Source: Candidatus Uhrbacteria bacterium (GTDB lineage: Bacteria > Patescibacteriota > Patescibacteriia > UBA9934 > GWF2-40-263). From it: 64,000 bases of DNA. The notes beneath the pieces are model-generated. The model made no database searches and had not been told where the DNA came from. It was given only the letters and a program-made list of their open reading frames with translations. The translations under genes were made by a program, and so were the position numbers. How positions within the stretch are numbered: the first letter of the stretch is position 1; every line of letters begins with the position of its first letter. The stretch covers positions 18,606 to 82,605 of the forward strand of contig JACPHX010000003.1 in assembly GCA_016188425.1 (NCBI GenBank). Direction: 5' to 3'. This document shows, piece after piece, positions 9,989-56,594 of the stretch.

Positions 9989-10009
9989 GTCACAAACGCT
10001 TCAAACCTC

Positions 10010-10588: not shown

Positions 10589-10673
10589 ATCGGTACCTTT
10601 CTCCCGTTTCACCGCACTCTCCCATAATTGGAAGGCATCGACCGAGCGCTTCATCGCCTTGCGTGACATGCTC

Positions 10674-11561: not shown

Positions 11562-11572
11562 AGTTACCGTGT

Positions 11573-12118: not shown

Positions 12119-12394
12119 TGCAATCGATTGTTTGCATGTCCGATCCTGCACTTTTCGCGCATCGTCCGCCTACTCCGTCCAGTGGCGCAACGTGTACAGT
12201 TCCAGGCTGCTTCGCAATGCGACCACGCTCGATCATCGAGTTCCATGGTGGTTCGCCCTCCCCGTGTGCATGGACAATCGAAAGGCGACATGGCTTGGAG
12301 TTGCTCGCAGTGACGAGCCAGTGCGAGAGATCGTAACGCAATGGGCCTCTCGGACGATGGATAGGTAACGACCTCCCTTGCGAAAGGACCGAAG

Positions 12395-13126
12395 ATGGCC
12401 AAATCTACGATCGAATGGACGGAGTCAACCTGGAACCCCGTGACGGGGTGTACCAAGATCAGCCCCGGGTGCAAATACTGCTACGCCGAGCGAATGGCGA
12501 AGCGACTTCGAGCGATGGGTCAAAGGAATTACCGTAACGGCTTCCAACTCACCCTCCATCCGCACATGCTCGACCGACCGCTACGCTGGAGGAAGCCGCA
12601 GACGATTTTCGTGAATTCGATGAGCGACCTGTTTCACGCGGAGGTGCCAGTCGAGTACATCCAGCGTGTCTTCGACATCATGTCGCGGGCACACAGGCAC
12701 CGCTTCCAGATTCTTACCAAGCGCTCCGCGCGTCTCGCCGAGGTCAGCCCCAGCCTCCCGTGGCCGGAGAACGTGTGGATGGGCGTGAGCGTTGAAAGCG
12801 CGGCCTACAAATTCCGGAGCGACGACCTGAGAAAGTCAGAAGCCCAGACGAAATTTCTTTCGCTGGAGCCACTTCTGGGTCCGCTCCCGAATCTCGACCT
12901 TCACGAAATCGACTGGGTCATCGTCGGCGGTGAGTCAGGGCCCGGCGCAAGAGGCATCCGAGCGGACTGGGTGACCGATATTCGCGATCAGTGTCTTCGC
13001 GCGAATGTTTCATTTTTCTTCAAACAATGGGGCGGTGTGAACAAGAAGACTACCGGTCGGGCACTGGAAGGAAGGACTTGGAACGAATTGCCTCGCACCC
13101 GCCTTCTGCCCGTCATCACGTCGTAG
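12395..13126 (+). CDS. Phage Gp37/Gp68 family protein (DUF5131)
   Basis: N-terminal [20 protein letters not shown] Cys cluster and overall length match the Gp37/Gp68 family. Confidence 0.6.
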
Positions 13127-13127
13127 G

Positions 13128-13667
13128 ATGCAATCGATTGCATCTGTGTTGGAACGGTCGGAACCGATCCCGAAAGACTGGAACGAGGCAGCGCAAATGA
13201 AACCCAATATTGACGATCTTATCAAAGCTCGCGACGAGGATGAAACAGACCCTAAGAGAATTAGAGAGGAGGTCACCAGAAAATTGTACGAAGAACACCA
13301 TGATCAGTTGGGAAAAAGGATTGCCAGAGTCAAAGCATCAGATCCGGATCTCAATCAAGACGATATTGACGAAATCCGAAGCACCTTCGAAGCATCCCTT
13401 CGAAGGAAACATTCCGCGTACATAAAAGCGGAGACGCTTCGGTCTTTAGATTTACATCAAATCACCAAAACCAAGGCCGATTCGATTGGCAGAATCATCT
13501 TAGCGCTCGAAGATCTGGAATGGAGTCCTCATGATTTTTGGGAGAGGCTACGGGCATCATGGGACACGGAGCAACTCGATAGAGCCATATTTCATTTTGA
13601 GAAAACAGGAGATGTTTCGCCTTTTCGGTATCTCCGTCCACCACGATCTCTCGGTTCAACGAGATAA
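13128..13667 (+). CDS. Hypothetical protein
   Basis: 179-aa ORF starting ATGCAATCGATTGCA directly after the previous stop. Charged and helical, no recognisable motif. The region looks lower in GC than its flanks. Confidence 0.45.
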   Translation: MQSIASVLERSEPIPKDWNEAAQMKPNIDDLIKARDEDETDPKRIREEVTRKLYEEHHDQLGKRIARVKASDPDLNQDDIDEIRSTFEASLRRKHSAYIKAETLRSLDLHQITKTKADSIGRIILALEDLEWSPHDFWERLRASWDTEQLDRAIFHFEKTGDVSPFRYLRPPRSLGSTR

Positions 13668-13929
13668 CGAGGTAGCCGCAACTTTTGTGACCGCGCCTCA
13701 TGTGGTCCATCGCTCACCTACGTGATTTTTGCAAGGCCGAGAACCGGAACGGGATTGGTCTCGCTGTGGAAAGAAGTTCGAACGTCGTCAATACTGGGGC
13801 ACCAGCCGTCGCTCCATCAAGTTTTTATAATTGATGGACCGACGGCTGTCCTCCGTAGCTCGCACCGAGCGAAGGAGGACCTATGTCTTGATCCTGAGAT
13901 GGAGCTATGGCTGGCACGGCCAACAAGGA

Positions 13930-13957
13930 AGACACTTTGAAAGAAGTGTCTTTTTTG
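13930..13957 (+). terminator. Rho-independent terminator
   Basis: agacactt-tgaaag-aagtgtct followed by TTTTTT. Confidence 0.55.
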
Positions 13958-14017
13958 TTTCTTGCCTCCATAAGACTTGCCCACCTGTCCCATTCCCGTT
14001 AGCATGTCCGTGCCCAC

Positions 14018-14094
14018 GGACGCTTAGCTCAGCCGGTTAGAGCGACTCGTTTACACCGAGTAGGCCGCAGGTTCGAATCCTGCAGCGTCCACCA
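14018..14094 (+). tRNA. tRNA-Val (anticodon TAC), CCA encoded
   Basis: Acceptor GGACGCT/AGCGTCC, D arm GCTC-AGCCGGTTA-GAGC, anticodon stem ACTCG/CGAGT with loop TTTACAC, T loop TTCGAAT, discriminator A then CCA. Confidence 0.85.
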
Positions 14095-15680
14095 TAAAGA
14101 ACTTCTTCATTTTTGGAGGAGTTTTTTGTATTTGCGACAAGTGCTTTTTCCGCTAAAGGAAAGACTTTTCCGAGTACGTCCCCACCATTTGGCTCGTGGT
14201 TCAACAGCAACTTTTGAGCTTGAATCAAATAATTGGCTGCTTTCAATTTTTCAATCGCAGGAATGGCTTGAATTAGCAGAGTTTGACCTTTTAGCTCGCG
14301 GTTCGAACTTAAAACGTTCAATACTTTTCTTTTGACCAAAGGATTGAGTTCTTTGAATTTAAACGGAAGATAATCGAAGACCTGAATCATTTCCATGGTG
14401 AGCTTCCAGAGGACATCTTCCTTCACATCTTCCATCTCGCCAATTTGAAGCCGCAGCGCGTGACGCAGTTCGGTAAGCTCATTCTTGCGAGACAAGCCCT
14501 CGTCAGACGTGAAGTAACCGTCCAGAACGGCTTTGTTGAGTTTTTCAAGCTGTTGATCAATTTGACCGAGCTTCAAATCCAAAGCTTTGCGTTTTGCCTG
14601 ATTATCAACGCGAATCTTGGAAGATAAACGAGCAATGGCCTCTTTGGCATAAACCATGAATTCATCGGCCAGCTCGTACTTTGCCAGATACGCAATGATT
14701 TGATCCTCAATGCGATCCTCACGAATCGTTTGGCGACATTTTGGGTTATGGCACTCAAGATATGTATGGGCTTTGTGGATAGAAGAAACCAAAAAACGAC
14801 CGCACTCACACTTAATCATTTTGGCGTAAGTGAAGTCGTGCAGCACTTTATTTTTTTGAGTTCTTCCATCCAAAATTTCCTGAACCTGATCAAAGAGCTT
14901 TTTGCTGATGATGGTGTCTTGATTACCTTCGTAGAAAGTAGGCTCCGTAGCCCCCTTCTTTTTCCACCGCAACATTCCGTGATAAAAAGGATTTCGAAGC
15001 ATTATATAAAACATGCTCTGGCGAATCGGGTTGCCGCTCGTATTTGTCATGCCACGCTTTCGCATGTATTCGCACAGTGTCACCGCTGAATAGTTGCCAG
15101 TGGCAAACAGTTCGAAGCTCTCCTTCACAAAAGGGGCAACCTTCGGGTCGAGCTGTTTCTTTTTGTGATCCTCGTCAACGCCTTTAATACCGCTTCGATA
15201 ACCGATCGGTGGCGGAGCTGGAAAATATCCCCTAAGTAAACACTCTTCCATTTTTGTACTGACTTCCTCCGACAGGTTTTCCGAATACCAGACAGCCATG
15301 TTACAGAAATTGCGGAAAGCCAGACGCCCTGCGGCACGGCTCGTATCAAATTCGCCCTCGATCACGATCATCTTCTTTTTATTCTTCGTGACCATTTGAT
15401 CAAGTAATGCGAAGTCGGCGACGTTTCGAGAGCTGCGATCCAATTTATGAAAAATAACCCCTTCTATTTCAGGGGTTGAGAGACGTTCAAGCATTGCAGT
15501 GAACTGCGTACGCTTTCCTTTGAAGCCAGATTTGGCCTCGCTGTACCATTCCACGATTTCACATTCCTTGCGCTCTGCGTATTCAGTGATAATGCGTTTT
15601 TGAGCAGGTAGAGAATTGTCCATCTCGGCCTGCGCTTTTGTGGAAACGCGACAATAGGCTACATACTTCTTCATAGGCAT
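14037..15680 (-). CDS. Large serine recombinase (phage integrase)
   Basis: N-terminal resolvase domain with catalytic Ser (VAYCRVSTKAQ), a recombinase domain, a zinc-ribbon region (CECGRFLV...CHNPKC), and a coiled-coil C-terminus. The last ~57 nt overlap tRNA-Val. Confidence 0.9.
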   Translation of the reverse strand: MPMKKYVAYCRVSTKAQAEMDNSLPAQKRIITEYAERKECEIVEWYSEAKSGFKGKRTQFTAMLERLSTPEIEGVIFHKLDRSSRNVADFALLDQMVTKNKKKMIVIEGEFDTSRAAGRLAFRNFCNMAVWYSENLSEEVSTKMEECLLRGYFPAPPPIGYRSGIKGVDEDHKKKQLDPKVAPFVKESFELFATGNYSAVTLCEYMRKRGMTNTSGNPIRQSMFYIMLRNPFYHGMLRWKKKGATEPTFYEGNQDTIISKKLFDQVQEILDGRTQKNKVLHDFTYAKMIKCECGRFLVSSIHKAHTYLECHNPKCRQTIREDRIEDQIIAYLAKYELADEFMVYAKEAIARLSSKIRVDNQAKRKALDLKLGQIDQQLEKLNKAVLDGYFTSDEGLSRKNELTELRHALRLQIGEMEDVKEDVLWKLTMEMIQVFDYLPFKFKELNPLVKRKVLNVLSSNRELKGQTLLIQAIPAIEKLKAANYLIQAQKLLLNHEPNGGDVLGKVFPLAEKALVANTKNSSKNEEVLYGGRCRIRTCGLLGVNESL

Positions 15681-16204
15681 TATTTTGATTTAGAAGGCTT
15701 TTTCTTACCCTTCGGAATGCTCTCGCCTTTATTAATGACCGCATATAGCTCCAAGAGCTTCTCTTTTTCGTCTTTTTCAAGTTCAAGAATACGCAAAATC
15801 ATATCGCGCTCTTCCTTGTCCTTCTGCATGATCTCCTCGATCAGGCGCTTCGTGTCTGGATTCACAACCACATTATTGGCATGGCCGTTCACGATAACGT
15901 TTGAGTCACCGCCTCCAGCCAAAATACCACTAGCCTGAATCAGCGAAGAAAGCTCATCGAACTTCTTGGCTTTTTCGGCAAACGCGGTCAATTCAGGGTT
16001 ATCTTCCCCGAAAAAGTAAGAAAGGGGCTTTTGAAGAGCCTTGGCAACGTCGGGCACGTATTTCTCGGGGTTCTTGATAAACCCGCTTTCGACTTTTTGA
16101 ATTGTGTTGGAAACCGCGCCGATCTTGCGAGAAAGCTCCATCTGGGACATCCCAGCTTCCTCTCTCGCCCGAATAATGCGGTTAACGATGGCATTTAGAG
16201 ACAT
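15680..16204 (-). CDS. XRE-family HTH transcriptional regulator, likely the CI-like prophage repressor
   Basis: N-terminal HTH (GMSQMELSRKIGAVSNTIQKVESG). Divergent from the early + strand genes and adjacent to the integrase. Confidence 0.75.
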   Translation of the reverse strand: MSLNAIVNRIIRAREEAGMSQMELSRKIGAVSNTIQKVESGFIKNPEKYVPDVAKALQKPLSYFFGEDNPELTAFAEKAKKFDELSSLIQASGILAGGGDSNVIVNGHANNVVVNPDTKRLIEEIMQKDKEERDMILRILELEKDEKEKLLELYAVINKGESIPKGKKKPSKSK

Positions 16205-16328
16205 GTGAGTAAAGGTTAATGATTAAAGAATAAAGGCAATGTTCCCGTTCTGTATTGAAGTATAGGAAAGATTAGAATAATAGTCAAGACTAATAACGGA
16301 AAGTTATCAACAGTCATACCAATTTTTC

Positions 16329-16356
16329 TTGACAATCTATTCTAAAAGAGTATGAT
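16329..16356 (+). promoter_or_regulatory. Sigma70-like promoter in the divergent lysogeny switch region
   Basis: TTGACA - 16 nt - TATGAT, about 90 nt upstream of the Cro-like ORF. The intergenic region is AT-rich. Confidence 0.4.
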
Positions 16357-16444
16357 GAACAGTGAAGGAACAGGAAGATGGCTTAGAATGCATATATTTT
16401 TTACCTCCAACTGTTCCGAAATGGAATAACTAACTTGTAAGAAA

Positions 16445-16672
16445 ATGGGCAGACCCTACGCAACAACTTCAGAAACTAGACAAAAAATGTGGGCGCTTTG
16501 GCTCAAAGGCTTCACGTTTATTGAGATTGCCCGCCAATTTAAAACTTACCGTCAAAAGACAAGGTCGATTGTCCTTGCCTACGATCCCACGTTTGAACAA
16601 TTCAAGCAGCACGACGAAAACCGTCGGATCAGGCAAATGGCGGGAAAGCTTTCCCCTAACTTAAATCCATGA
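16445..16672 (+). CDS. Small putative DNA-binding protein (Cro/excisionase-like)
   Basis: 75 aa, basic, with a possible HTH (WLKGFTFIEIARQF). First gene of the rightward early operon. Confidence 0.45.
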   Translation: MGRPYATTSETRQKMWALWLKGFTFIEIARQFKTYRQKTRSIVLAYDPTFEQFKQHDENRRIRQMAGKLSPNLNP

Positions 16673-16675
16673 GGT

Positions 16676-16851
16676 ATGTCCAATACAACACAAGAAAAAT
16701 GGACTCCTCAAGAAGAGGAGATTATCGGGTTCTTCATGGATTTAATACCAGTCCTTCAAGAGGTAAAGGCCGACTTAGAGCAGAAAGGCCTCCTTAATAA
16801 AGCAGTATGTGTGAGCGGCGGAGAGTCTGCTCCGCAGCCCATTAACTCTTA
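16676..16851 (+). CDS. Small hypothetical phage protein (58 aa)
   Basis: ATG at 16676 (MSNTTQEKWTPQEEEIIGFFMDLIPVLQEV...) directly after the previous stop. Below the ORF-track size cutoff. Confidence 0.3.
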
Positions 16852-17115
16852 ATCATATGCAAATACAAGTTTTCTCAGACGAATGGTGGTTCCAGCTGAC
16901 AGTCATGCTCATCCTCATCAGCGGGTTCGCACTAACGCTCTGCATCATGGAACTCGCGGTCTGCATATGGGCGGAGCTGACTGGGCGGCAGACAGACCTG
17001 CCAACGCAAGAAAGCGTACACCGATTCTTCATGAGAATCAGGCTCGCGCTGATCCGAAGGCGGAGACGCAAAGCCTACAAGAACCAACCACTTAATAATT
17101 TAATCACCAAATCTT

Positions 17116-22574: not shown

Positions 22575-22670
22575 GCTCGGCCTATACTCAAGCAAATATC
22601 GGAACCCAGTCTTAAAGACCATTTGCCCGCAAAAACGGGCTTCGCATGGTCTTTTTTTAATTTTACCCCT

Positions 22671-23927
22671 ATGAAAATCGAACAAGTAAACATCGAACAA
22701 CTCATCTTCGCGGATTACAACCCGCGCGCCTCGACCGAAAAGGAAGAGCAAGAACTCAAGAAATCCATTGAGCGTTTTGGCTTTGTGGAGCCTGTGATCG
22801 TGAACAGCGACGCCAAAAGAAAAAACATTATCATCGGCGGACACTTCCGCGTGCGCATGGCCAAGAAAATGGGCATCAAAGAAGTGCCCGTGCATTACAT
22901 CAAAATCAGCGACATCAAAAAGGAAAAGGAACTGAATCTCCGCCTCAACAAAAACTTGGGACACTGGGACATGGATCTGCTCGCGAACTTCGACGAAGAA
23001 ACGCTTCTCGACGTGGGTTTTGATTCGGCCGAGATTGATCAGCTCTTCCTGAACCTCGATCCAGACGACAAGGACGACGAAGTGCCCGAGCTGCCAGAAA
23101 CGGCCGTCTCAAAGCTGGGTGAAATCTACCTGCTCGGCGAACACCGCCTGATGTGCGGAGACTCAACCAGCAAAGAGGATGTGGCTAAGCTCATGAACAA
23201 CCAGAAAGCCGACATGGTCTTCACCGATCCTCCCTACAACGTGAACTACAAAGGGTCGGGCGAAAAGACCAAGAACCACATCAAGAATGACAACATGAGC
23301 GACGACGCCTTCACTGACTTTCTGACCAAGTCATTTCAGAACTACCGCGAATCAATGAAGGCTGGCTCGGGTATTTATGTCTTTCACAGCTCATCAACGC
23401 AACGGCAATTCGAAGGCGCCTTGGAAAAGACGGGATTCGAAGTGAAGAGCCAACTCATCTGGAATAAGCCGTCGAGCGCGCTCGGCTGGGGCGATTACCG
23501 ATGGAAACATGAACCGTTCTTTTACGCTGGAATCAAGGGCGAAAAGATACAGTTTTACGGCGACCGCTCCCACTCGAGCGTCTGGGACTTTCAGAAATCG
23601 GAAAAGGAATTGCTCTCATGGGCTCAACGCATGAAACGTTATGAGCAGCAAGGAAAAACCACAGTATGGAGTATGTCCCGCAGTAATGTGCAGGAATACG
23701 TCCATCCAACGCAAAAGCCCGTTGAGCTCGTCTCCTACGCCATCGTAAACAGCAGCAAATCTGGAGATATCGTGCTCGACCTGTTTATGGGCTCGGGCTC
23801 GGCTTTGATTGCCTGCGAGAAAACCCACCGCGTGTCTTACGGCATGGAACTCGACCCGAAATACGTCGACGTGATCGTAAAACGCTGGGAAGACTTCACG
23901 GGCAAGAAGGCCAAAAAATCCTCCTAA
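22671..23927 (+). CDS. ParB-like nuclease domain fused to a DNA methyltransferase (beta-class N6A/N4C)
   Basis: N-terminal ParB/Srx fold (NPRASTEKEEQELKKSIERFGFVEPVIV...GGHFRVRMA). MTase motif IV DMVFTDPPYNV, then motif I VLDLFMGSGSALIA in beta-class order. Confidence 0.85.
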   Translation: MKIEQVNIEQLIFADYNPRASTEKEEQELKKSIERFGFVEPVIVNSDAKRKNIIIGGHFRVRMAKKMGIKEVPVHYIKISDIKKEKELNLRLNKNLGHWDMDLLANFDEETLLDVGFDSAEIDQLFLNLDPDDKDDEVPELPETAVSKLGEIYLLGEHRLMCGDSTSKEDVAKLMNNQKADMVFTDPPYNVNYKGSGEKTKNHIKNDNMSDDAFTDFLTKSFQNYRESMKAGSGIYVFHSSSTQRQFEGALEKTGFEVKSQLIWNKPSSALGWGDYRWKHEPFFYAGIKGEKIQFYGDRSHSSVWDFQKSEKELLSWAQRMKRYEQQGKTTVWSMSRSNVQEYVHPTQKPVELVSYAIVNSSKSGDIVLDLFMGSGSALIACEKTHRVSYGMELDPKYVDVIVKRWEDFTGKKAKKSS

Positions 23928-28113: not shown

Positions 28114-28228
28114 CGGATTTCCACAGGCATAAGCCCCGAAATGGGGCTATTTTGGTCTTGAAAAATAATCTCAAAGTGGTACTATAATGATGACGCTGTC
28201 CTGCAAACACTTAATTACATGCAATATT

Positions 28229-28450
28229 ATGGCAGAGAATAAACAACCCGAAAAAACCATAGGGCAAAAAATCAAAGAATTGCGTAAAAAAAAGGATTTA
28301 ACGCAAGAGGGTTTGGCGCGCAAAGCTGATCTTCCGTATACCACTCTTGTTAAAATTGAAGGCGACGCGATTCAGAATCCTACGCTCGATACTATTACAA
28401 AAATAGCAGCGGGATTGGAAGTCTCTTTGGATGATTTAATAAACTCATAA
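28229..28450 (+). CDS. XRE-family HTH regulator, candidate controller (C-protein-like) of the downstream Type I R-M genes
   Basis: IGQKIKELRKKKDLTQEGLARKADLPYTTLVKIEGDAIQNPTLDTITKIAAGL is a textbook XRE HTH. Its stop lies 3 nt before the hsdM start. Confidence 0.7.
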   Translation: MAENKQPEKTIGQKIKELRKKKDLTQEGLARKADLPYTTLVKIEGDAIQNPTLDTITKIAAGLEVSLDDLINS

Positions 28451-28453
28451 TCT

Positions 28454-30718
28454 ATGGCAAAAGATTCAAACAATAAAACGGTCGAAACATTTGAAAAGCA
28501 ACTTTTTAAAGCTGCAGACAAACTACGCAAAAATATTGATGCTGCAGAATACAAGCACGTTGTGCTCGGCCTTGTTTTTCTTAAATATATTTCGGACTCC
28601 TTCGAAGAACTCTACAACAAATTGAAGGAAGGCAAGGGCGAATACGAAGGCGCTGACCCAGAGGATCAAGACGAGTACCGTGCTCAGAATGTTTTCTGGG
28701 TGCCACAAAATGCTCGATGGTCTTACCTCCATTCTCGTGCAAAGCTTCCAACGATAGGAACTGATCTCGATGAAGCAATGGAACTTATCGAGAAGGAGAA
28801 CCCAACCCTAAAGGGCATTTTGGCAAAGGTCTATGCAAAACCGAATCTTGATAAAGCTGCGCTTGGCGGACTGATTGACCTAATCAGCAATACTGCGCTT
28901 GGAAGTGAAGCTGCGAAGTCAAAAGATCTTCTCGGCCGAGTCTATGAATATTTCCTCGGTGAATTCGCTAATGCTGAAGGTAAAAAAGGCGGACAATTCT
29001 ATACACCGAAAGCAATTGTAAGACTGCTGGTTGAAATGATTGAACCATACAAAGGGCGTGTATATGACCCTTGCTGCGGATCAGGCGGGATGTTTGTTAT
29101 GAGCGAAAAATTCGTACTCGAACATTCTGGGCGTCTCGACGATGTATCTATTTACGGACAAGAAAGCAATCAAACCACATACAGATTGAGCCGTATGAAT
29201 ATGGCTATTCGCGGTATTGATGGTTCACAAATCAAATGGAACAGCGAGGGTTCATTTTTGAAAGATGCACATCCTGATTTGAAAGCAGATTATATTATTG
29301 CAAATCCTCCATTCAATCAGTCTGACTGGGGGCAAGAAATACTGCGAAACGATCCTCGTTGGCAATTCGGGCTTCCTCCTGCAAGTAATGCCAATTTTGG
29401 CTGGATGCAACACATGATTTACCACCTTGCTCCCCACGGAGTAATGGGTCTTGTTCTCGCAAACGGCTCGTTATCATCCAACTCCTCTGGGGAGGGTGAA
29501 ATTAGACAACGAATGATCGAGGCGGATTTAGTCGATTGCATAGTAAGTCTTCCTACTCAACTTTTCTATAATACTGGAATTTCGGCATGCTTATGGTTTA
29601 TATCTAGGAAACGCAGTGGCAATGGTGATCGTAAACGTACAGGAGAAATACTATTTATAGATGCGAGTGAAATGGGTCACATGATTGATAGCACCCATCG
29701 CGAATTTACTGACGCTGATGTTGCTAAGGTATCTAGTATTTATCATGAATGGAGAAAGGACGGAGGAAGTTATAGCGATGAAAAGGGATTGTGTAAATCA
29801 GGCTCAATTAAGGATATCGAAAAACATCACTTCGTGTTGACTCCAAGTCGATACGTTGGAGTGGCAGATGATCAGAATAGCAAGATACCCTTTGAGTTTC
29901 AAATTGAAAATCTGAATAAATTCGGCAAGGAGCAAGCTAGAATTGAATCAATATTAAATCAGGAAATAATTGAAAGTATTAAATATTTCTGCCCAAATTA
30001 CGATTGGGCGAATACCAATTTTTTGTCTACTGAAATCTTAGAACAAATTACACAGATGCTGTTCAAAGAATGGTTTCTCGAATTCAATTTTTTGGATGAT
30101 AACGGAAAACCTTATAAAAAAAGTGGTGGGGAGATGATAGAAAATGATTTCGGCCTGATTCCTAAAGGATGGAGTATTGGGAAAGTCGGAGAGATTATTG
30201 ATATTTTTGATTCACAAAGAATCCCGTTGTCTTCACGAGAAAGAACGAAGCGTAAAGGTGAATACCGCTATTACGGGGCAACGTCAATAATGGATTATGT
30301 GGACGACTATTTGTTTGAGGGAATCTATCTCCTTTTAGGAGAAGACGGATCGGTTATCGATGATAAAGGATATCCAATCTTGCAGTATGTTTGGGGGAAA
30401 TTTTGGGTCAACAATCACGCGCATGTTTTGCAAGGTAAGAATGGTTACAGTACAGAGATGCTTTATTTGCTTTTCAAAAACACGAGAGTGGCTGGCATTG
30501 TTAACGGCGCCGTGCAGTTAAAAATTAACCAAGGGAACTTACTAGGTTTGGAGATCGTTATTCCTGAGAGAAAAATCCTAGATACCTTTTGTGAAAAAAT
30601 TTCTCCAATTTTTAAGAAAATTAGGTTCATGCACGACCAACTAAAAAATCTTGCATCAATCAATAAAAATGAAGAGCCTCAGTACGTTGAAGGACAGAGT
30701 AAAACTAATATTTCATAA
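28454..30718 (+). CDS. hsdM: Type I restriction-modification HsdM (N6-adenine MTase) fused to an HsdS-like target-recognition domain
   Basis: HsdM N-domain (HVVLGLVFLKYISD), motif I DPCCGSGGMF, motif IV IIANPPFN. The C-terminal ~300 aa carry an HsdS TRD-like region (KGWSIGKVGEIIDIFDSQRIP...). Confidence 0.85.
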   Translation: MAKDSNNKTVETFEKQLFKAADKLRKNIDAAEYKHVVLGLVFLKYISDSFEELYNKLKEGKGEYEGADPEDQDEYRAQNVFWVPQNARWSYLHSRAKLPTIGTDLDEAMELIEKENPTLKGILAKVYAKPNLDKAALGGLIDLISNTALGSEAAKSKDLLGRVYEYFLGEFANAEGKKGGQFYTPKAIVRLLVEMIEPYKGRVYDPCCGSGGMFVMSEKFVLEHSGRLDDVSIYGQESNQTTYRLSRMNMAIRGIDGSQIKWNSEGSFLKDAHPDLKADYIIANPPFNQSDWGQEILRNDPRWQFGLPPASNANFGWMQHMIYHLAPHGVMGLVLANGSLSSNSSGEGEIRQRMIEADLVDCIVSLPTQLFYNTGISACLWFISRKRSGNGDRKRTGEILFIDASEMGHMIDSTHREFTDADVAKVSSIYHEWRKDGGSYSDEKGLCKSGSIKDIEKHHFVLTPSRYVGVADDQNSKIPFEFQIENLNKFGKEQARIESILNQEIIESIKYFCPNYDWANTNFLSTEILEQITQMLFKEWFLEFNFLDDNGKPYKKSGGEMIENDFGLIPKGWSIGKVGEIIDIFDSQRIPLSSRERTKRKGEYRYYGATSIMDYVDDYLFEGIYLLLGEDGSVIDDKGYPILQYVWGKFWVNNHAHVLQGKNGYSTEMLYLLFKNTRVAGIVNGAVQLKINQGNLLGLEIVIPERKILDTFCEKISPIFKKIRFMHDQLKNLASINKNEEPQYVEGQSKTNIS

Positions 30719-30726
30719 TAATTCTT

Positions 30727-31251
30727 ATGGCAGAAATTTTTCAAAGTATCATAAATTTTTTTAACCACCCTGTCTTCATTATTGTTGGAGGTGTCACTGT
30801 TACCTTGGGTTTTCTTGGAATTATCTACAAAATACTTTGCTGGACTTTCGGGATCACTCCTATCGTCATCAGATTAGGCATCGCTTTATGGAAAAGAAAG
30901 GTTGCTATTTTTGGATCAGCTGATGCATACGCAAGCCTAGAGGCAACCCTTACTGATTCTGGAATATTTAAAAAATCAATCCACATTACTTCTGATAATG
31001 TTGATAAAGCTAAGAGCGAAACGATCTTCCTAGTGGACTGGGAAACATTCGGCGACAAAATAGATCAGGTATTCACCGCTAGAACCAACCACCAAACGGC
31101 AATTGTTATTTTTGCAAAACCAGCAAGCATTCCGAACGATAAAATGGCCGACATAGCCAATCGTGCAAATACGGTTGTCGTAAATTTTAGAGGACGTCTT
31201 TTGAACGATATTCTGACCTCATTAATTACAACGAGTTATGAAAAGAACTGA
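30727..31251 (+). CDS. Hypothetical protein with an N-terminal TM segment
   Basis: VFIIVGGVTVTLGFLGIIYKILCWTFGITPIVIRLGIAL is hydrophobic. The gene overlaps the downstream NTase gene by 14 nt, suggesting one operon. Confidence 0.45.
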   Translation: MAEIFQSIINFFNHPVFIIVGGVTVTLGFLGIIYKILCWTFGITPIVIRLGIALWKRKVAIFGSADAYASLEATLTDSGIFKKSIHITSDNVDKAKSETIFLVDWETFGDKIDQVFTARTNHQTAIVIFAKPASIPNDKMADIANRANTVVVNFRGRLLNDILTSLITTSYEKN

Positions 31252-32560
31252 GTTTAATACAAAATTCCGCCAGCACACACGAGAAAAACTTTCTCCTACA
31301 CAAAGAGAGAAAGATTTTGTTAGCGCGCTGTATGCAGAATTACAAAAGGTGCTTGGTGTAAATAATTGTATTCAAATCGGTTCATATCCAAGATTCACTG
31401 CTCATACGCCGCTTCACGACCTAGATGTGTTGTATTTTGCTGGGCAGTACGACCCTCGCGGAGTAAATCCAACAAATATTCTCAGTGATTTGAAAAAAGC
31501 CATTGATAGAGACTTTGTTAACCCGACCAGTTACAACGTGAGTTCTTCTCTCCAAACGCATTCTGTCACAATGAGTTTTGCCTCTAGTGGTCAGGAAGTA
31601 TTTGCAATTGATATCGTCCCTGCATACATTTCTGAAACAAAAAATGAATTCGGAGACGATACTTATTGGGTTCCTGAAATAATGACAGTGGGACATTCGA
31701 AACGTAAATCAATGTACGAGCAGCACTTGAGGGATCATATGGCGATTGAATGGATCAAGTCTGATCCACGAGGCTATATTAAAGTCGCTCAGGAATTAAA
31801 CTCTCAAAATGACGATTTCCGAAAAGCCGTGAAATTCGTTAAGGCGTGGAAACATGGTTGCAAAAAAATAGACGATACTTTCAAACTGAAATCTTTTCAT
31901 GTTGAGCAGATAATTACACAATATTTTCAGCAAGATAGTAGTCTCGATCTGATAGGTGCAATCTTTAAATTCTTTTGTGATCTTGAATCAATTATTTCTC
32001 AACCTCAAATTCGCGATCGAGCAAATTCCACGAAATATATTGATGATTATTTGAATGAATTAAATCCCGAACAAAAACGTAAAATACTGGAAGCTCGAGA
32101 CTTCTTCATGAACAAACTCGAAAGGCACACGGAAGCCTCACCTATGCCGATACTACTCGTGGGCGGTTTTTATGAACGGAAGAGTGATTCTGAACAATTC
32201 CTATACGACCTTAGCATCCCCACTTTTATCGAGGATCAATACGATTTTGTCGTGGATGGTAAGGTTGAAAAAAAAGATGGATTTAGGGGTGGTTATTGGT
32301 TGAGTGAAAACCAAGACAAGGCTCCGACTGGATTAAAGATTTATTTCCAATTAAGAAAAGATAATACAGGCGCTCCACTCTGTAAGTGGAAGGTCAAAAA
32401 TCACGATAATTGTGAACAACCACGCGGAGAACTAAATGATCACAGAACGAGGAATCATCCTGAATCTACAGCCTACAAAGGTGAACATTATGTCGAATGC
32501 TATGCCATTAAAAATGGGGCATGCGTGGCACGACATAAACGCAGTGTAATAATCCATTAG
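31238..32560 (+). CDS. Pol-beta superfamily nucleotidyltransferase, cGAS/DncV/OAS-like candidate (CD-NTase-like)
   Basis: IGSYPRFTAHTPLHDLDV (GS-x11-DxD). Third acidic position EVFAIDIVPA. The helical-domain motif KAVKFVKAWKHG resembles the hhKhW of OAS/cGAS-like enzymes. Family assignment is tentative. Confidence 0.55.
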   Translation: MKRTEFNTKFRQHTREKLSPTQREKDFVSALYAELQKVLGVNNCIQIGSYPRFTAHTPLHDLDVLYFAGQYDPRGVNPTNILSDLKKAIDRDFVNPTSYNVSSSLQTHSVTMSFASSGQEVFAIDIVPAYISETKNEFGDDTYWVPEIMTVGHSKRKSMYEQHLRDHMAIEWIKSDPRGYIKVAQELNSQNDDFRKAVKFVKAWKHGCKKIDDTFKLKSFHVEQIITQYFQQDSSLDLIGAIFKFFCDLESIISQPQIRDRANSTKYIDDYLNELNPEQKRKILEARDFFMNKLERHTEASPMPILLVGGFYERKSDSEQFLYDLSIPTFIEDQYDFVVDGKVEKKDGFRGGYWLSENQDKAPTGLKIYFQLRKDNTGAPLCKWKVKNHDNCEQPRGELNDHRTRNHPESTAYKGEHYVECYAIKNGACVARHKRSVIIH

Positions 32561-32564
32561 TCTT

Positions 32565-34076
32565 ATGAAAACTTTACAAATCCCATCGCCAAATTCTGGA
32601 GGAATGACCTCTCTCTCAATTGAGAAGAGCTTAGTTGTTGTTGGAGCGAATGGATCTGGAAAAACACGATTTGGTTCTAAAATTGAACAATCAAATAACC
32701 CTTCAAAAAGAATTTCTGCACAAAGATATTTACAGCTCAACGAAACAGTTCAGAAACAGGACTTTGAGACGGCTTTCAACCAATTGAATAGTGGCTATAA
32801 GAATCAGTCACCCATTCAACCACAGAACGACTATCAGCAAGTACTGGTATCACTTTTTGCTCAGGAATCACGAAGAAACGAAGAGGTTGTGATGACTATT
32901 CAGCAAAAAGGAAGCGTCTCAAAGGAGAGCCTTGCAAAATCCATCAAAGAACAGGTGGTTGAAGTTTGGAACTTTGTTTTCCCATACCGAACATTAAAAT
33001 TAGAAAAAGATAGGATTCGTGCTGTTAGCGAGTCGGGCGAATTCTCTGGAGCCGAAATGAGCGATGGCGAAAAGGTTGGGTTATATTTAATTTCCCAGAC
33101 GCTTTTAGCAGAAAAAGATTGTTTACTTATCATCGATGAGCCTGAACTTCATTTGCACAAGGCTTTAATGGTGAGGCTTTGGAATAAACTTGAAGAATAT
33201 AGAAAAGACTGTGCCTTTGTTTATATAACCCACGATCTTGATTTTGCTGTTAGTAAACCATCAAGCAAATTGATCTGGATCAAGAGCTTTCAGAATTCAA
33301 CATGGAACTGGAATGAGTTAGAAGCCAATGGAATCATTCCAGAAAATCTTTATCTTGAAGTTCTTGGTAGTAGAAAATCAATACTGTTTGTAGAAGGAGA
33401 AAAAGGCTCATTGGATGCGCAGATTTACCAAGCATACTATGATAATTTCACAGTTATCCCAAGAGGGTCGTGCGAAAAAGTAATCGAATCGGTTAAGGGG
33501 CTGAGAGAGAATGCGGGCTTGCATGACAAGCAAGTTTTTGGATTAATCGATCGAGATTTCCGCTCCGAAGAACAGATTCAATCTCTACAAGCTGATAGCG
33601 TATTTAGCATTTCTCTTAACGAAATAGAGAATCTTTTTTTGCTACCAGAGGTAGTTCAGTTAGTCTGTGATCACCTTTCCAAATCAGACAAAAAAGAGGA
33701 GATATTCTCTCAGATTAGAGGACATTATGAGACCAATAAGGAGCAGATAAATTTTGCTGCATCGAAATTTTCTATTCAACGCATGTTGAATGAAAGATTT
33801 GGTTCAGTAAAAAACCAAGAACAGTACAACAGCTTCAAGGAAACTATTGTAACTGAAATGGACAAGCTATTGTCATCGGGAACGCTTCCAGAAAAAGATG
33901 CTGAAATAATTGAAATATTGAAGATATATCCTCACAAGGGGCTTGTAAGGCAGGTGCAAACAGTGATCGAACTCTCAAAAAATGGATTTACAAACCTCGT
34001 GCTAAGTTTTCTCTCCTCTGACAAGCGACAGAATCTTATCGAGATTTTGAAATCACATTTTCCAGAAATTAAATAA
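32565..34076 (+). CDS. OLD/PARIS-like protein: ABC-type ATPase fused to a TOPRIM/DUF4435-like nuclease domain
   Basis: Walker A GANGSGKTR, signature-like MSDGEK, Walker B LLIIDEPELHLH, H-loop YITHD. C-terminal ILFVEGEKGS (Glu), GLIDRDFR (DxD) and EIENLFLLPE are typical of OLD-family TOPRIM / DUF4435. Confidence 0.65.
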   Translation: MKTLQIPSPNSGGMTSLSIEKSLVVVGANGSGKTRFGSKIEQSNNPSKRISAQRYLQLNETVQKQDFETAFNQLNSGYKNQSPIQPQNDYQQVLVSLFAQESRRNEEVVMTIQQKGSVSKESLAKSIKEQVVEVWNFVFPYRTLKLEKDRIRAVSESGEFSGAEMSDGEKVGLYLISQTLLAEKDCLLIIDEPELHLHKALMVRLWNKLEEYRKDCAFVYITHDLDFAVSKPSSKLIWIKSFQNSTWNWNELEANGIIPENLYLEVLGSRKSILFVEGEKGSLDAQIYQAYYDNFTVIPRGSCEKVIESVKGLRENAGLHDKQVFGLIDRDFRSEEQIQSLQADSVFSISLNEIENLFLLPEVVQLVCDHLSKSDKKEEIFSQIRGHYETNKEQINFAASKFSIQRMLNERFGSVKNQEQYNSFKETIVTEMDKLLSSGTLPEKDAEIIEILKIYPHKGLVRQVQTVIELSKNGFTNLVLSFLSSDKRQNLIEILKSHFPEIK

Positions 34077-34083
34077 TAAATCT

Positions 34084-37000
34084 ATGACTCACATCTACGA
34101 ATCAGACGTCGAACTACTGGCTATAGAAACCCTAGAATCACTTGGGTACGGCTATCTTGCACCCGAAGTCCAAGAAGCAGAACGCCAAGGGCTTACTGAG
34201 GTAGTTTTGAAGGATCGGCTTATTAGCGCCATCGCCAAGATCAATCCGAAGGCAACAAACGATGCTCGTCAGCAAGCGCTCCGTGCCGTTTTGAATATGC
34301 CAAGCCAAAACCTCATTGATAACAATGAGGCGTTCCACCGCATGCTCACCGATGGCGTGGAGGTTGAGTCCTATGCAAACGGTGAAACAAAAGGCGACAA
34401 GATTTGGCTTGTTGATTTTGAGCACCCAGAAAACAATGAATTCCTCGTCTGTAGCCAGTTCACTGTAATGCATGACAATAACCATAAACGTCCAGACATC
34501 GTCCTGCTTGTGAACGGTTTGCCGCTCGTAGTTATCGAGCTCAAAAACCCTACGGACGAAAACGCTACGGTCAAAAAAGCTTTCACACAGCTACAAAACT
34601 ACAAGACGGCCGTGCCTCAACTGTTCAACTACAACGGCATTCTCGTGGCGTCTGATGGACTCGATGCAAAAGCAGGTTCACTGACTGCCTCCTTTTCCCG
34701 TTTCCTCGCGTGGAAAACCATTGATGGTGTCAAAGAAGATAAAGTTACCATTCCGCAAATGGAGACGTTGATCAATGGAATGCTCCGCCCAACCGTACTA
34801 CTTGACCTCATCAAACAATTTACGGTTTTTGAAAAAAGCAAAAAGGAAGATGCTGTCACGGGCTTAACCCAGATCGAAACTGTAAAGAAAATCGCTGCAT
34901 ATCACCAATATTACGCCGTTAATAAAGCGGTCGAATCCACTCAGGGAGCAGCCAGCGAAAAAGGAAGCCGAAAAGCTGGTGTGGTTTGGCATACGCAAGG
35001 ATCTGGAAAATCGTTATCGATGGTTTTTTACGCAGGCAAAATTGTTCTAACGTTGAAGAACCCCACAATCGTTGTTATTACCGACCGTAACGATCTCGAC
35101 GACCAGCTCTTTGATACTTTTGCGGGTTGCAAACAGCTTCTGCGTCAAGACCCAGTGCAAGCGGAAAACCGTGGACAACTCAAAGAATTACTCAAGACCT
35201 CTGGTGGCGGCATCATCTTTACCACCATTCAAAAGTTTTCACCTGAAGATGGGTCTACGGTGTTTGACATGCTCTCCGATCGCAAAAATATTGTAGTCAT
35301 CGCTGATGAGGCACATCGCAGTCAATATGGATTTGGAGCGAAGACGCACATTAAGGATGGTGAAGCGCACACGAAATACGGGTTTGCTAAATACCTACGT
35401 GATGCTCTTCCAAGTGCGTCCTTCATTGGATTTACTGGAACGCCAATCGAAAAAGAAGATGTTTCTACGCCTGCAGTATTTGGCCACTACATCGATGTAT
35501 ACGATATCGAGCAGGCCGTTGAAGACGGTGCAACTGTTCGAATTTACTATGAATCACGATTAGCGCGAGTTCACCTCAAAGAGGAAGAGGCAGCTAAACT
35601 CGATGCCGAAGTTGAAGCGCTCACTGAAGGCGAAGAATCTACATCAAAAGATAAGGCCATGGCTAAATGGACTCAGCTTGAGGCCATTGTTGGGCATAAA
35701 GATCGCCTGAAAATTATCGCCAAAGATATTGTTGATCACTTCAGCAAACGTCAGGAAGTCTTTGAGGGTAAAGGAATGATCGTGGCCATGAGTCGCCGCA
35801 TTGCTGTTGAATTGTACGAAGAGATTATCAAACTGAAACCTGAATGGCACAGTGACGACAAGAAAAAGGGTGTGATTAAAGTCGTCATGACTTCCAGTTC
35901 TAGCGACCCAGAAAACTGGCAGAAACATCACACCACCAAACAGGAACGCAAAGAACTTGGCGATCGAATCAAGAATCCAAATGATGAGCTTCAATTGGTG
36001 ATCGTTCGTGACATGTGGCTTACTGGCTTCGATGCGCCGTGTCTCCACACCATGTACATCGATAAAGCCATGGAGGGACACAACCTCATGCAGGCGATTG
36101 CCCGCGTGAATCGAGTATTTAAAGATAAACCTGGTGGTCTTATCGTAGACTACATCGGTATTGCCTCCGATCTTAAAACCGCGCTTGCTACCTACACCGA
36201 AAACGGTGGTCAGGGTGCACCAACTCTTGATCAAGCAGACGCCGTTGCAACCATGCTCGAAAAGTTCGAGGTCGTTACTCAAATGTTCGATGGCTTTGAA
36301 TATCGGCCATATTTTACGGCCAATACCAAAGCAAAAATGACAACCATTCTCGAGGCGCAAGAATTCGTGCTCGGTCTTGATGACGGCAAAAATCGTTTCA
36401 CCAAACAAGTAGGACTTCTCTCAAAAGCTTTTGCCCTTTCGGTGCCAGATGAAAGAGCCATGGAGATCAAGGATGACGTCGCATTCTTTCAGGCCGTAAA
36501 AGCACGCCTCACAAAGTTTGAACCGACCGATGGCGAACGGAGCGATGATGATATCGAGACAGCTATTCGCCAAATCGTGGACAAGGCTGTAGTGGCCGAG
36601 GGCATGGTTGATATCTTCGATGCTGCAGGTATTAAAAAACCTGACATCTCCATTCTCTCCGATGAGTTCATGGAAGAAATTAAGGGCATGGAACGTAAGA
36701 ACCTCGCGCTGGAACTCTTGAAAAAGATTCTTGGTGATGAAATCAAAAGCCGAGGAAAGAAAAACTTCATTCAGAGTAAGAAGCTTTCTGAGATGCTCGA
36801 GATGGCAATTAAGAAGTACCAAAACAACCTTCTTACTGCAGCGCAAGTTATTGATGAGCTTATTAAGCTGGCAAAAGATATCAAAGAATCTGATGCGAGA
36901 GGCAGCGGACTCGGACTCAACAGCGATGAAATTGCTTTCTACGATGCCTTGATGATCAATGGAAGCGCCATGGCCATTCTTGGCGATGACAAGTTGCGTG

Positions 37001-37200
37001 ATCTTGCTCGCATTCTTGTCGAAAAAGTAAGAGCAAATACTACGATCGACTGGACAATAAAGGAAAGCGTTCAGGCACGTCTTCGAGTTATTGTTAAGCG
37101 CATTCTTAATCAATACGGATATCCACCAGACAAGCAGAAACTCGCTACAGAAAACATCCTGAAACAAGCAGAGCTTCTTGCTGAAGACTGGGGTAACTAA
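34084..37200 (+). CDS. hsdR: Type I restriction enzyme R subunit HsdR
   Basis: 1038 aa with N-terminal nuclease domain, helicase motif I HTQGSGKS, DEAH box IVVIADEAHRSQ, later helicase motifs, and a C-terminal helical domain. Confidence 0.9.
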   Translation: MTHIYESDVELLAIETLESLGYGYLAPEVQEAERQGLTEVVLKDRLISAIAKINPKATNDARQQALRAVLNMPSQNLIDNNEAFHRMLTDGVEVESYANGETKGDKIWLVDFEHPENNEFLVCSQFTVMHDNNHKRPDIVLLVNGLPLVVIELKNPTDENATVKKAFTQLQNYKTAVPQLFNYNGILVASDGLDAKAGSLTASFSRFLAWKTIDGVKEDKVTIPQMETLINGMLRPTVLLDLIKQFTVFEKSKKEDAVTGLTQIETVKKIAAYHQYYAVNKAVESTQGAASEKGSRKAGVVWHTQGSGKSLSMVFYAGKIVLTLKNPTIVVITDRNDLDDQLFDTFAGCKQLLRQDPVQAENRGQLKELLKTSGGGIIFTTIQKFSPEDGSTVFDMLSDRKNIVVIADEAHRSQYGFGAKTHIKDGEAHTKYGFAKYLRDALPSASFIGFTGTPIEKEDVSTPAVFGHYIDVYDIEQAVEDGATVRIYYESRLARVHLKEEEAAKLDAEVEALTEGEESTSKDKAMAKWTQLEAIVGHKDRLKIIAKDIVDHFSKRQEVFEGKGMIVAMSRRIAVELYEEIIKLKPEWHSDDKKKGVIKVVMTSSSSDPENWQKHHTTKQERKELGDRIKNPNDELQLVIVRDMWLTGFDAPCLHTMYIDKAMEGHNLMQAIARVNRVFKDKPGGLIVDYIGIASDLKTALATYTENGGQGAPTLDQADAVATMLEKFEVVTQMFDGFEYRPYFTANTKAKMTTILEAQEFVLGLDDGKNRFTKQVGLLSKAFALSVPDERAMEIKDDVAFFQAVKARLTKFEPTDGERSDDDIETAIRQIVDKAVVAEGMVDIFDAAGIKKPDISILSDEFMEEIKGMERKNLALELLKKILGDEIKSRGKKNFIQSKKLSEMLEMAIKKYQNNLLTAAQVIDELIKLAKDIKESDARGSGLGLNSDEIAFYDALMINGSAMAILGDDKLRDLARILVEKVRANTTIDWTIKESVQARLRVIVKRILNQYGYPPDKQKLATENILKQAELLAEDWGN

Positions 37201-37207
37201 AATAACT

Positions 37208-37969
37208 ATGTCGGAATACTACACACCACAACGCACTCGAAATCTGTACGATCCAAAAGATACTGAGCCGTTCAAGCTCAGCCGCTCGAAGATCGACCTG
37301 TTTTTGAGCTGCCCTCGGTGTTTCTATTTCGACCGCAAACTTGGCGTAGGTCGCCCGCCTGGTTTTCCGTTTTCACTGAACAGTGCAGTGGATGCATTGC
37401 TAAAAAAGGAGTTCGACATTCACCGTAGCGCTGGGACTAAACACGCTTTGATCGAAAAATACGGAGTCGACGCACGCCCTATTCCCCACGAAGACTTGGC
37501 CAAGTGGCGCCATAACTTCACTGGCATTCAGTACGTCCACGAACCGACAAATCTTCTCATTTACGGTGCGATCGATGACCTTTGGCAGAACTCCAAGGGT
37601 GAATACATCGTCGTGGATTATAAAGCCACTGCAAAAGAGGGCGATATAACCGAACTCGATAAGGCTTGGCATGACGGCTACAAGCGCCAGATGGAAGTGT
37701 ACCAATGGCTGTTGCGGCGAAGAGGGCTCACGGTGTCTGATACAGGCTACTTCGTGTATTGCAACGGCAAGGCCGATCGTGTCGCCTTTGATGGCAAGCT
37801 GGAGTTTGATGTGACACTCATTCCCTACACGGGAAATGATAGCTGGGTAGAAAATGCCGTTATCGGTGCCCATAACTGCCTTAATGCCGACATTATTCCC
37901 GAAGCTGCGGAAGGCTGTGACTACTGCGCCTACGTGAACGCTATTAACCAACAAAACTATGGACGATGA
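37208..37969 (+). CDS. Cas4-like PD-(D/E)xK nuclease with terminal Cys motifs
   Basis: AIDDLW...GEYIVVDYKA is a D..E.K motif. N-terminal CPRCFYF and C-terminal GCDYCAY are Cys pairs typical of Cas4/DUF83 Fe-S nucleases. Confidence 0.6.
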   Translation: MSEYYTPQRTRNLYDPKDTEPFKLSRSKIDLFLSCPRCFYFDRKLGVGRPPGFPFSLNSAVDALLKKEFDIHRSAGTKHALIEKYGVDARPIPHEDLAKWRHNFTGIQYVHEPTNLLIYGAIDDLWQNSKGEYIVVDYKATAKEGDITELDKAWHDGYKRQMEVYQWLLRRRGLTVSDTGYFVYCNGKADRVAFDGKLEFDVTLIPYTGNDSWVENAVIGAHNCLNADIIPEAAEGCDYCAYVNAINQQNYGR

Positions 37970-38106
37970 AGAAATCCTTCAGATGGTAACCGACGGCGAA
38001 TTGGACTCCTCTCAAATCGAGGACTTCAAAGGACTGAGCGACGAAGTTCAAGAGCTCGTAACCAACGGCGATATCGACATCGATGAGGCTCTGGAACTCG
38101 AGTAGA
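37960..38106 (+). CDS. Small highly acidic hypothetical protein (48 aa)
   Basis: ATG overlaps the previous stop (ATGGACGATGA). Product is MDDEEILQMVTDGELDSSQIEDFKGLSDEVQELVTNGDIDIDEALELE. Below the ORF-track cutoff. Confidence 0.3.
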
Positions 38107-38127
38107 CTTTTTCCACAGCCAAACCCC

Positions 38128-38155
38128 TTGCATTGCCATACCGAATTGGTATAAT
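38128..38155 (+). promoter_or_regulatory. Near-consensus sigma70 promoter upstream of the late structural genes
   Basis: TTGCAT - 16 nt - TATAAT. Confidence 0.5.
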
Positions 38156-38178
38156 TGAATAGTAAGAAATAGTCTTAA

Positions 38179-38228
38179 AGACCAGTTTGTCCCCGCATGT
38201 CGCGCGGACACCGAACTGGTCTTTTTTC
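38179..38228 (+). terminator. Structured hairpin plus T-tract immediately downstream of the promoter (6S-like terminator, attenuator or small RNA)
   Basis: Perfect 9-bp outer stem agaccagtt/aactggtct enclosing an inner gtcc...ggac stem, followed by TTTTTT. It starts about 24 nt after the -10 element. Confidence 0.45.
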
Positions 38229-38276
38229 GTTACCGCCAACACTAAGGCGTAAAAATGTTTATTAATCACCCCAGCT

Positions 38277-55492: not shown

Positions 55493-55650
55493 ACGGGCGG
55501 TTTTTTCCGCGAAGTGTTGGCAAAGTTGCTGGTACGGCACAAGATCGACGGAAGCGAAATATTCCTTGATTCCGAGCACAACTTCCTCCACAATTTGGGG
55601 CAACCATTTGGTTAGCGGTTCCAATCGCGTTAATGACCCCCCACCAAAAA

Positions 55651-55685
55651 CACCCAGGATTTTTTCCTGGGTGTTGTTGTTTCCC
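55651..55685. terminator. Bidirectional Rho-independent terminator near the prophage right end
   Basis: cacccagga-ttttt-tcctgggtg flanked by T-tracts on both strands (ttgttgttt on +, AAAAA read as TTTTT on minus). Confidence 0.55.
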
Positions 55686-55839
55686 CCAAAATGCGAAGGC
55701 CCCCGGATCTCATTGAGATACGGGGGCTCGTGGACGTGACGCCGGCGTCGAAGGTCGGACGCGGCGCGATAATACCGACTCTGTCAAGAGGCGGCTTGCG
55801 TCTCGGGGCGGGGTGCAGGGACCCCGCCTATTTGGAAAA

Positions 55840-56586: not shown

Positions 56587-56594
56587 ATGTGGAG

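Follow-up and report, generated by a model that had tools for sequence, protein, structure and literature searches.

Our study examined a window of 64,000 nucleotides from contig JACPHX010000003.1, assigned to a Candidatus Uhrbacteria bacterium, and in particular three plus-strand genes that lie between the hsdM-S and hsdR genes of a type I restriction-modification (R-M) system. These encode a small membrane protein, a nucleotidyltransferase (NTase) and an ATPase-nuclease, and a sequence-only reading of the window had taken them for one novel defence system in which a signal made by the NTase gates the ATPase-nuclease. Our analysis points with high confidence to a different arrangement, namely a prophage-borne, seven-gene defence island that holds three separate systems: type I R-M, a merged form of PARIS (phage anti-restriction-induced system) and a Type I CBASS (an antiphage signalling system based on cyclic oligonucleotides), with the cyclase of the last signalling to the membrane protein. 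The finding is carried by the identities of the genes, by their intact catalytic motifs and by their modular co-occurrence in other lineages. It removes a false lead, as the cGAS/DncV-like NTase (CD-NTase) and the OLD-like nuclease beside it do not form a new signalling pair in this locus. It also offers a clear case of defence stacking in nature, in which one putative operon combines restriction with an anti-anti-restriction guardian and abortive-infection signalling. This stacked unit is carried by a temperate phage, among its head genes, and the host is labelled as a bacterium of the candidate phyla radiation (CPR). All of the components belong to known kinds, and defence genes nested in R-M or bacteriophage exclusion (BREX) loci have already been published.

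According to the open reading frame (ORF) listing of the window, the effector gene (30727-31251, 174 aa) overlaps the cyclase gene (31238-32560, 440 aa) by 14 nt, and a gap of 4 nt separates the latter from the ariAB gene (32565-34076, 503 aa), exactly as the sequence-only reading had described. Its placement of the trio within an R-M locus was equally sound, the flanking genes being identified by Pfam as a 754-aa HsdM-S fusion on the 5' side and a 1038-aa HsdR on the 3' side. The three genes are not chance ORFs, because each has hundreds to thousands of full-length homologues. The proposed novelty of the trio as a system did not survive, as all three proteins match existing PADLOC models over approximately their full length.

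Distribution of the CBASS pair and AriAB

The collection of cyclase loci comprised 91 loci in 77 non-redundant lineages; a scan of genome contigs with the single cyclase sequence yielded one short contig, and a scan of viral contigs with the cyclase profile yielded one locus. An effector gene of the transmembrane (TM) family abuts the cyclase gene upstream in 67 of the 72 lineages with enough upstream sequence, and the 14-nt overlap between the two is frequent, being kept in L002 and L009 among others. The conserved partner of the cyclase is therefore the small membrane protein, which argues against a signal that gates the ATPase-nuclease. Co-occurrence of the NTase and ATPase-TOPRIM genes across genomes had been set beforehand as a check on that proposal, and an AriAB gene was found in just 1 of the 58 cyclase lineages with enough flanking sequence. 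This one, L010, is a near-identical relative of the window (AriAB 89 % and HsdR 98 % identical) and was counted as the same lineage, not as an independent one. In the other direction, none of seven independent AriAB lineages has a cyclase.

Five of these seven lineages have the order hsdS-ariAB-hsdR without CBASS (L011, L012, L112, L113 and L116, with AriAB 73, 70, 65, 64 and 43 % identical to that of the window, respectively), and in all five the stop and start codons at these junctions overlap or abut. In the remaining two, also without CBASS, ariAB follows a type II R-M system (L015, 67 %) or stands alone on an integrative element (L114, 53 %). The CBASS pair, for its part, occupies the hsdS/hsdR slot alone in L060, lies between hsdM and hsdR in L090, L092 and L094, and follows hsdR in L007. 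Because AriAB and the CBASS pair each occupy such slots without the other elsewhere, the window holds two independent modules that landed in a known insertion slot.

A single integrated system, in which an NTase signal or modification gates the OLD-like ATPase-nuclease, would find encouragement in the tight packing of the trio, in its retention in L010 and in a second, independent adjacency of a CBASS pair and an OLD-family ATPase-TOPRIM gene in L093. We nevertheless assign it very little probability. L010 offers no independent support; AriAB is absent from 57 of the 58 cyclase lineages with enough flank, and AriAB lineages down to 43 % identity are without any cyclase; the cyclase already has a dedicated partner in the membrane protein; and no SAVED, CARF or STING sensor domain was detected in AriAB, either by Pfam or among the best 25 of 38 PADLOC matches. 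The L093 neighbour (5404-7104), 64 nt downstream of the CBASS pair, encodes a 566-aa OLD-family protein with AAA_21/AAA_15 matches and a sub-threshold OLD-like TOPRIM; its best PADLOC match is 'Old' (1.9e-20), and the gene adjoins an EcoEI-type HsdR and a serine recombinase. It thus belongs to a different family and another defence island, and two adjacencies in ~58 lineages, with different nuclease families and within defence islands, are what co-localisation would give.

Comparison with the flanking hsd genes indicates that AriAB behaves not as a co-evolved subunit but as a portable cassette that distant type I families have taken up at one and the same junction, because it is 64-70 % identical in L012, L112 and L113, where HsdM and HsdR are only 31-37 % identical to those of the window. 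L011 is the sole case of parallel divergence (HsdM 77 %, AriAB 73 %, HsdR 78 %), and the co-divergence of AriAB with its hsd genes that it would imply was rejected, as AriAB is far better conserved than its hsd neighbours in the other three lineages. It is of interest in itself that merged AriAB, at 43-70 % identity, has retained its place between hsdS and hsdR even where the R-M families around it share only ~31-37 % identity.

Identity of the cyclase and its membrane effector

The 440-aa protein matches PADLOC Cyclase PDLC00785 (E=1.5e-175) over residues 1-439, against a model of 443 positions, and carries a Pfam AGS_C domain at residues 331-439 (2e-15). The Pfam SMODS match fell below threshold, and matches to NCBIfam CBASS cyclases were real but under their equivalog cut-offs. 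Among proteins of solved structure, CdnD/CdnC were matched by the family profile (6e-15 and 2e-11), and the sequence-only reading of this protein as a CD-NTase-like enzyme was borne out. An identical cyclase protein is on record from a 109-kb contig that carries the label Candidatus Uhrbacteria. An antibiotic-NTase or AbiEii identity was rejected on the Pfam, PADLOC and NCBIfam results together with the profile match to solved CD-NTases. Residues G48, S49, D61, D63, D125, K199, K202 and W204 are invariant in the family alignment, and the catalytic G48-S49, D61, D63 and D125 are all present in the window cyclase. The motifs listed earlier for the NTase, as for the ATPase/TOPRIM protein, were thus found to be both present and conserved in their family alignments.

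The 174-aa protein matches the PADLOC CBASS effector '1TM' (PDLC00664, E=1.6e-75) over its full length. It has N-terminal hydrophobic helices at ~15-55 and a cytoplasmic five-stranded alpha/beta domain at 59-170, for which a CheY/receiver-like fold was predicted. Where strand 3 of this domain ends, an Asp is retained (D104), and the acidic pair after strand 1 is missing. Membership of the receiver family was not accepted, as the fold is a very common one and identity is only ~10 %. The '1TM' family is strongly conserved, with >100 relatives at 62-90 % identity and a near-invariant C-terminal motif (ANRxNTVVVNF[RK]GRLLND), and our literature search found no experimental work on it. A widespread CBASS membrane effector family with a predicted receiver-like sensor domain is of interest, as is its setting here in a CPR prophage. 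Effectors also appear to be exchanged between cyclases: in L001 (959-2786) the cyclase is 84 % identical to that of the window and the effector only 41 %, and in L026, L035, L037 and L038 effectors 62-72 % identical to that of the window are paired with cyclases only 47-49 % identical.

Judged by their sequences, the effector and cyclase genes are a minimal two-gene Type I CBASS. There are no Cap2/Cap3, HORMA/TRIP13 or signature regulatory genes among the neighbours within 28187-37969, all of which encode helix-turn-helix (HTH), HsdM-S, AriAB, HsdR or PD-(D/E)XK proteins, and the same two-gene layout without ancillary genes is also found in relatives. Fusion to AGS-C is typical of Type I CBASS, being reported for ~40 % of the cyclases of this type, which are usually partnered by membrane effectors, and escape mutations map to virion assembly proteins (bioRxiv 10.1101/2023.05.21.541620). 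The pair resembles systems of this type with a TM effector and a CD-NTase-AGS-C (Millman 2020 classification; Richmond-Buccola et al. 2023 preprint) in its two-gene operon, Pol-beta-type core, C-terminal AGS-C and small membrane effector. It differs from them in its CPR host, in its nesting inside type I R-M and in the predicted receiver-like fold of the effector, which sets it apart from the SAVED, STING and beta-barrel (Cap15) sensors that have been characterised.

AriAB as a merged PARIS protein

The 503-aa protein was found to match PADLOC AriAB PDLC02982 (E=4.6e-120), with residues 4-502 aligned to model positions 29-567 of 570. It consists of a compact ATP-binding cassette (ABC) ATPase at ~1-255, a DUF4435 TOPRIM at ~270-400 and a helical C-terminal region. 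Pfam placed DUF4435 at residues 271-397 (52.4 bits against a cut-off of 27), and the PADLOC AriB profile also matched (1.6e-13). The ATPase is of the AAA_15/AAA_21 type expected of PARIS and has an intact Walker A (G27/N29/K33), signature (S166-D167-G168-E169), Walker B (D191-E192) and H-loop (H223), all invariant in the family; the invariants of the TOPRIM half are E277, D329, D331 and N356, with E355 nearly so. The AriAB profile and DUF4435 therefore uphold the earlier suggestion of an OLD/PARIS-type ABC ATPase-TOPRIM protein, and on sequence grounds the gene is a merged, single-gene PARIS. Over its full chain, the protein can be aligned to GajA and Ts OLD, both of them ATPase-TOPRIM proteins, and AriA was among the top three in a structural comparison with AriAB, although these fold searches were dominated by the ATPase half. 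A class 1/2 OLD nuclease identity (P2 Old, GajA) was not supported: the OLD-type TOPRIM PF20469 is absent from the Pfam matches, the region matching DUF4435 instead, and PADLOC GajA matches are weak (~1e-5) and confined to the ATPase. The overall architecture of the fold is shared with these nucleases.

Merged ariAB genes form two of the eleven PARIS clades (PMC11464382), and single-gene fusions, with rules for their detection, were already reported by Rousset et al. (PMC9122126). The window protein resembles these merged, class 4 OLD-family forms (Rousset 2022; Burman 2024) in its AAA_21-type ATPase and DUF4435 TOPRIM, joined in one polypeptide with intact motifs, in its carriage on a mobile element and in having for a neighbour a methylation-based defence, against which anti-restriction proteins would be directed. 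It is, however, only ~500 aa long, compared with ~800 aa for AriA plus AriB, and its sequence similarity to the solved Escherichia coli proteins is marginal.

Several observations weigh against our interpretation. The family profile of AriAB reaches E. coli AriA only marginally (E=0.034), and neither the whole-protein nor the C-terminal-half profile gave a sequence match to AriB. Among solved structures, the single AriAB sequence matched nothing, the family profile matched ATPase domains only and the C-terminal half matched no TOPRIM, so that the backing for a TOPRIM fold comes through the whole-chain alignments to GajA and OLD. A fused nuclease cannot be released as in E. coli PARIS, and the activation step must differ accordingly. 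On the CBASS side, the receiver-like domain is not among the characterised CBASS sensor domains, and binding of the signal there is an assumption. The tight trio kept in L010 and the OLD-family gene that follows the L093 CBASS pair leave a narrow opening for cross-talk between AriAB and the cyclase. Finally, the literature yielded no experimental work on this locus or on any merged AriAB.

The place of AriAB between hsdS and hsdR also brings PrrC to mind. In EcoprrI, the slot of prrC is likewise the one between hsdS and hsdR. AriAB could accordingly be a PrrC-style guardian, held inactive by the R-M enzyme and firing on its inhibition, and not a direct sensor of an Ocr-like protein. Consistent with this are its fixed place between hsdS and hsdR in five lineages, the most distant at 43 % identity, with stop and start codons that abut or overlap, the coupling of one lineage to type II R-M and the size of the ATPase half, which at ~255 aa compared with 464 for AriA need not conserve the trigger-binding architecture of the latter. 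We regard such a guardian as possible but unlikely, given that AriAB remains 64-70 % identical beside HsdM and HsdR that are 31-37 % identical, that it also occurs with type II R-M and alone on an integrative element, and that no PrrC-type nuclease domain was matched among the best 25 of 38 PADLOC matches, where PrrC/RloC models were likewise absent. The two proteins are alike as ABC-ATPase-type abortive-infection genes proposed to guard R-M, and PrrC and E. coli AriB both cut tRNA-Lys; only the operon position of the window AriAB is analogous, since it is without the PrrC nuclease domain and also occurs with unrelated type I families. The embedding of prrC in the EcoprrI locus is documented (PMC12707154).

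A broader form of this idea was also considered. AriAB recurs at the hsdS/hsdR junction of type I families that are unrelated to one another, and type II R-M genes can likewise precede it; the compact merged clade might be a specialised R-M guardian in the prrC slot, one that reads the state of the R-M enzyme rather than an Ocr-like protein. Here it would be stacked with a receiver-fold-effector CBASS as a single-promoter, three-layer cassette in a CPR host. We consider this unlikely, and prefer to read the merged PARIS as one of three separate systems.

A proposed order of action

The triggers, signal molecule, tRNA target and membrane killing proposed for these three separate systems are modelled on characterised relatives. 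Type I R-M would cut unmethylated incoming DNA first. In E. coli PARIS, AriA binds Ocr and the AriB TOPRIM nuclease cleaves tRNA-Lys (PMC11464382; PMC12707154); by analogy, the AriAB ATPase would sense a phage anti-restriction protein or a related cue and switch on its own TOPRIM nuclease, which would cleave tRNA and stop translation. As the fused nuclease is not releasable, this activation would have to occur in cis or by oligomerisation. CBASS would act later, with the CD-NTase, helped by AGS-C, sensing an infection cue and producing a cyclic oligonucleotide, which would bind the cytoplasmic alpha/beta domain of the effector and lead to membrane damage and cell death before phage release. 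Membrane disruption has been described as the predominant CBASS killing strategy (PMC12480259). The cyclase signal would thus go to the membrane protein and not to AriAB. The suggestion that the embedded genes act as a back-up layer for R-M fits the published biology of PARIS.

That CBASS and AriAB are neighbours here is explained by the hsdS/hsdR junction, at which defence genes have landed repeatedly. Payne et al., in describing 'guilt by embedding', found that type I R-M, BREX and DISARM loci often hold nested defence genes and proposed embedded PARIS as an answer to Ocr (bioRxiv 10.1101/2024.01.29.577857). A BREX-embedded PARIS is known from Salmonella D23580 (PMC11341690), and enteropathogenic E. 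coli (EPEC) has an HTH-hsdM-hsdS-[DarTG2]-hsdR island in which the hsdS/hsdR site was called a likely hotspot (PMC12255303). The window resembles these embedded islands (EPEC RptR-HsdM-HsdS-[DarTG2]-HsdR; Salmonella BREX with PARIS; Payne 2024) in its first-placed small HTH gene, its nesting at the hsdS/hsdR junction and its single-operon layout, and differs in having two systems in tandem, a half-S fused to HsdM and a site within a phage head module.

Operon structure and R-M genes

Seven plus-strand genes span 28187-37969, each pair being no more than 8 nt apart or overlapping. A terminator-like hairpin (28132-28148, plus strand) lies directly 3' of the phage minor-head gene and a promoter-like site (28158-28185, plus strand) directly 5' of the first island gene, both being consensus matches only. 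The consensus scan for terminators and promoters found no convincing plus-strand terminator between the start of the island and 37969. Because of the close spacing and the one upstream promoter-like site, the seven genes are probably transcribed as a single unit.

The first gene (28187-28450, plus strand) encodes a small Xre-type HTH protein (Pfam HTH_3, 8e-13) and ends 3 nt 5' of hsdM. In L007, L010, L011 and L015, too, the R-M genes come after an HTH gene of similar kind, and the protein is likely to be a transcriptional controller, with RptR as a published analogue (PMC12255303). The next gene (28454-30718, plus strand) encodes an in-frame fusion of HsdM with the C-terminal half of a specificity subunit, and the locus has no hsdS gene of its own besides. 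Pfam identified HsdM_N and N6_Mtase (1e-104) domains and Methylase_S at residues 570-729, and PADLOC Specificity_I matches cover the second half of the S profiles, corresponding to one target-recognition domain. The protein would have to dimerise, and the target that it recognises would probably be symmetric. The fusion recurs in two related loci (L010 1097-3241 and L001 3-962) and is therefore unlikely to be an assembly artefact. Downstream of the trio, HsdR (34084-37200, plus strand) has HSDR_N, SWI2_SNF2, T1R_D3-like and T1RH-like_C domains by Pfam and matches NCBIfam hsdR at 2.9e-197.

Base composition differs along the locus: the host flanks have a GC content of ~0.56 and the phage one of ~0.48, compared with 0.37-0.42 for the stretch that begins with the HTH gene and ends with ariAB. 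Searched by megablast with the 10-kb island, neither E. coli genomes nor GenBank phages gave a match. The embedded genes, at 0.38-0.39 compared with 0.46-0.49 for hsdR and the phage, may be of recent foreign origin, and this, along with the reduction of hsdS to one half fused to hsdM, might suggest decaying passengers without current function. Decay of this kind is very unlikely, as all three ORFs are full length against their family profiles, every family-invariant catalytic residue is present and translational coupling is preserved.

The last gene of the unit (37178-37969, plus strand) overlaps the end of hsdR by 23 nt and encodes a Cas4-like PD-(D/E)XK nuclease with four Cys (Pfam PDDEXK_1, 1.3e-13; PADLOC and NCBIfam Cas4 matches), which could be a further defence or accessory gene. 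Copies 56-60 % identical occur at or near the downstream edge of similar R-M/CBASS/PARIS islands (L002 9431-10174; L012 15260-15991, in L012/L014; L060 14927-15682; L113 1158-1748). The L060 island (4674-16981) is larger and has the order HsdM-HsdS-TM effector-cyclase-HsdR; after HsdR come a GmrSD-like protein (HEC-05/PDC-M55C), then the Cas4-like nuclease, then a trypsin-like protease with a match to the protease portion of reverse transcriptase-protease defence models.

Prophage setting

Carriage of the island on a prophage, as the sequence-only reading had proposed, was confirmed by a large serine integrase/recombinase gene (14037-15680, minus strand) beside tRNA-Val (14018-14094), by head and tail genes and by steps in GC content near 13.5 kb and 55.5 kb. 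The prophage spans ~13500-55500, and window positions 1-13500 and 55500-64000 are host flanks; no convincing direct repeats of at least 18 nt mark its ends. Upstream, the island is preceded by genes for terminase, portal and minor head proteins; downstream, it is followed by those for major head, tape-measure and tail proteins. Provided that the contig was binned correctly, a CPR bacterium here carries a siphovirus-type prophage that looks intact.

The island (28114-38276) has the minor-head (MuF-like) gene on one side and the scaffold/major-capsid genes on the other. In a related phage (L007/L008), this site is filled by another set of genes (HTH-HsdM-Ymh-HsdS-HsdR-TM-cyclase), which suggests that phages of this group have a hotspot for cargo within their head-morphogenesis module. 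The phage also encodes, shortly upstream of its packaging genes, a ParB-like domain fused to a DNA methyltransferase (22623-23927; phrog_498, 3e-145), which is probably a self-protection or anti-restriction methylase of the phage.

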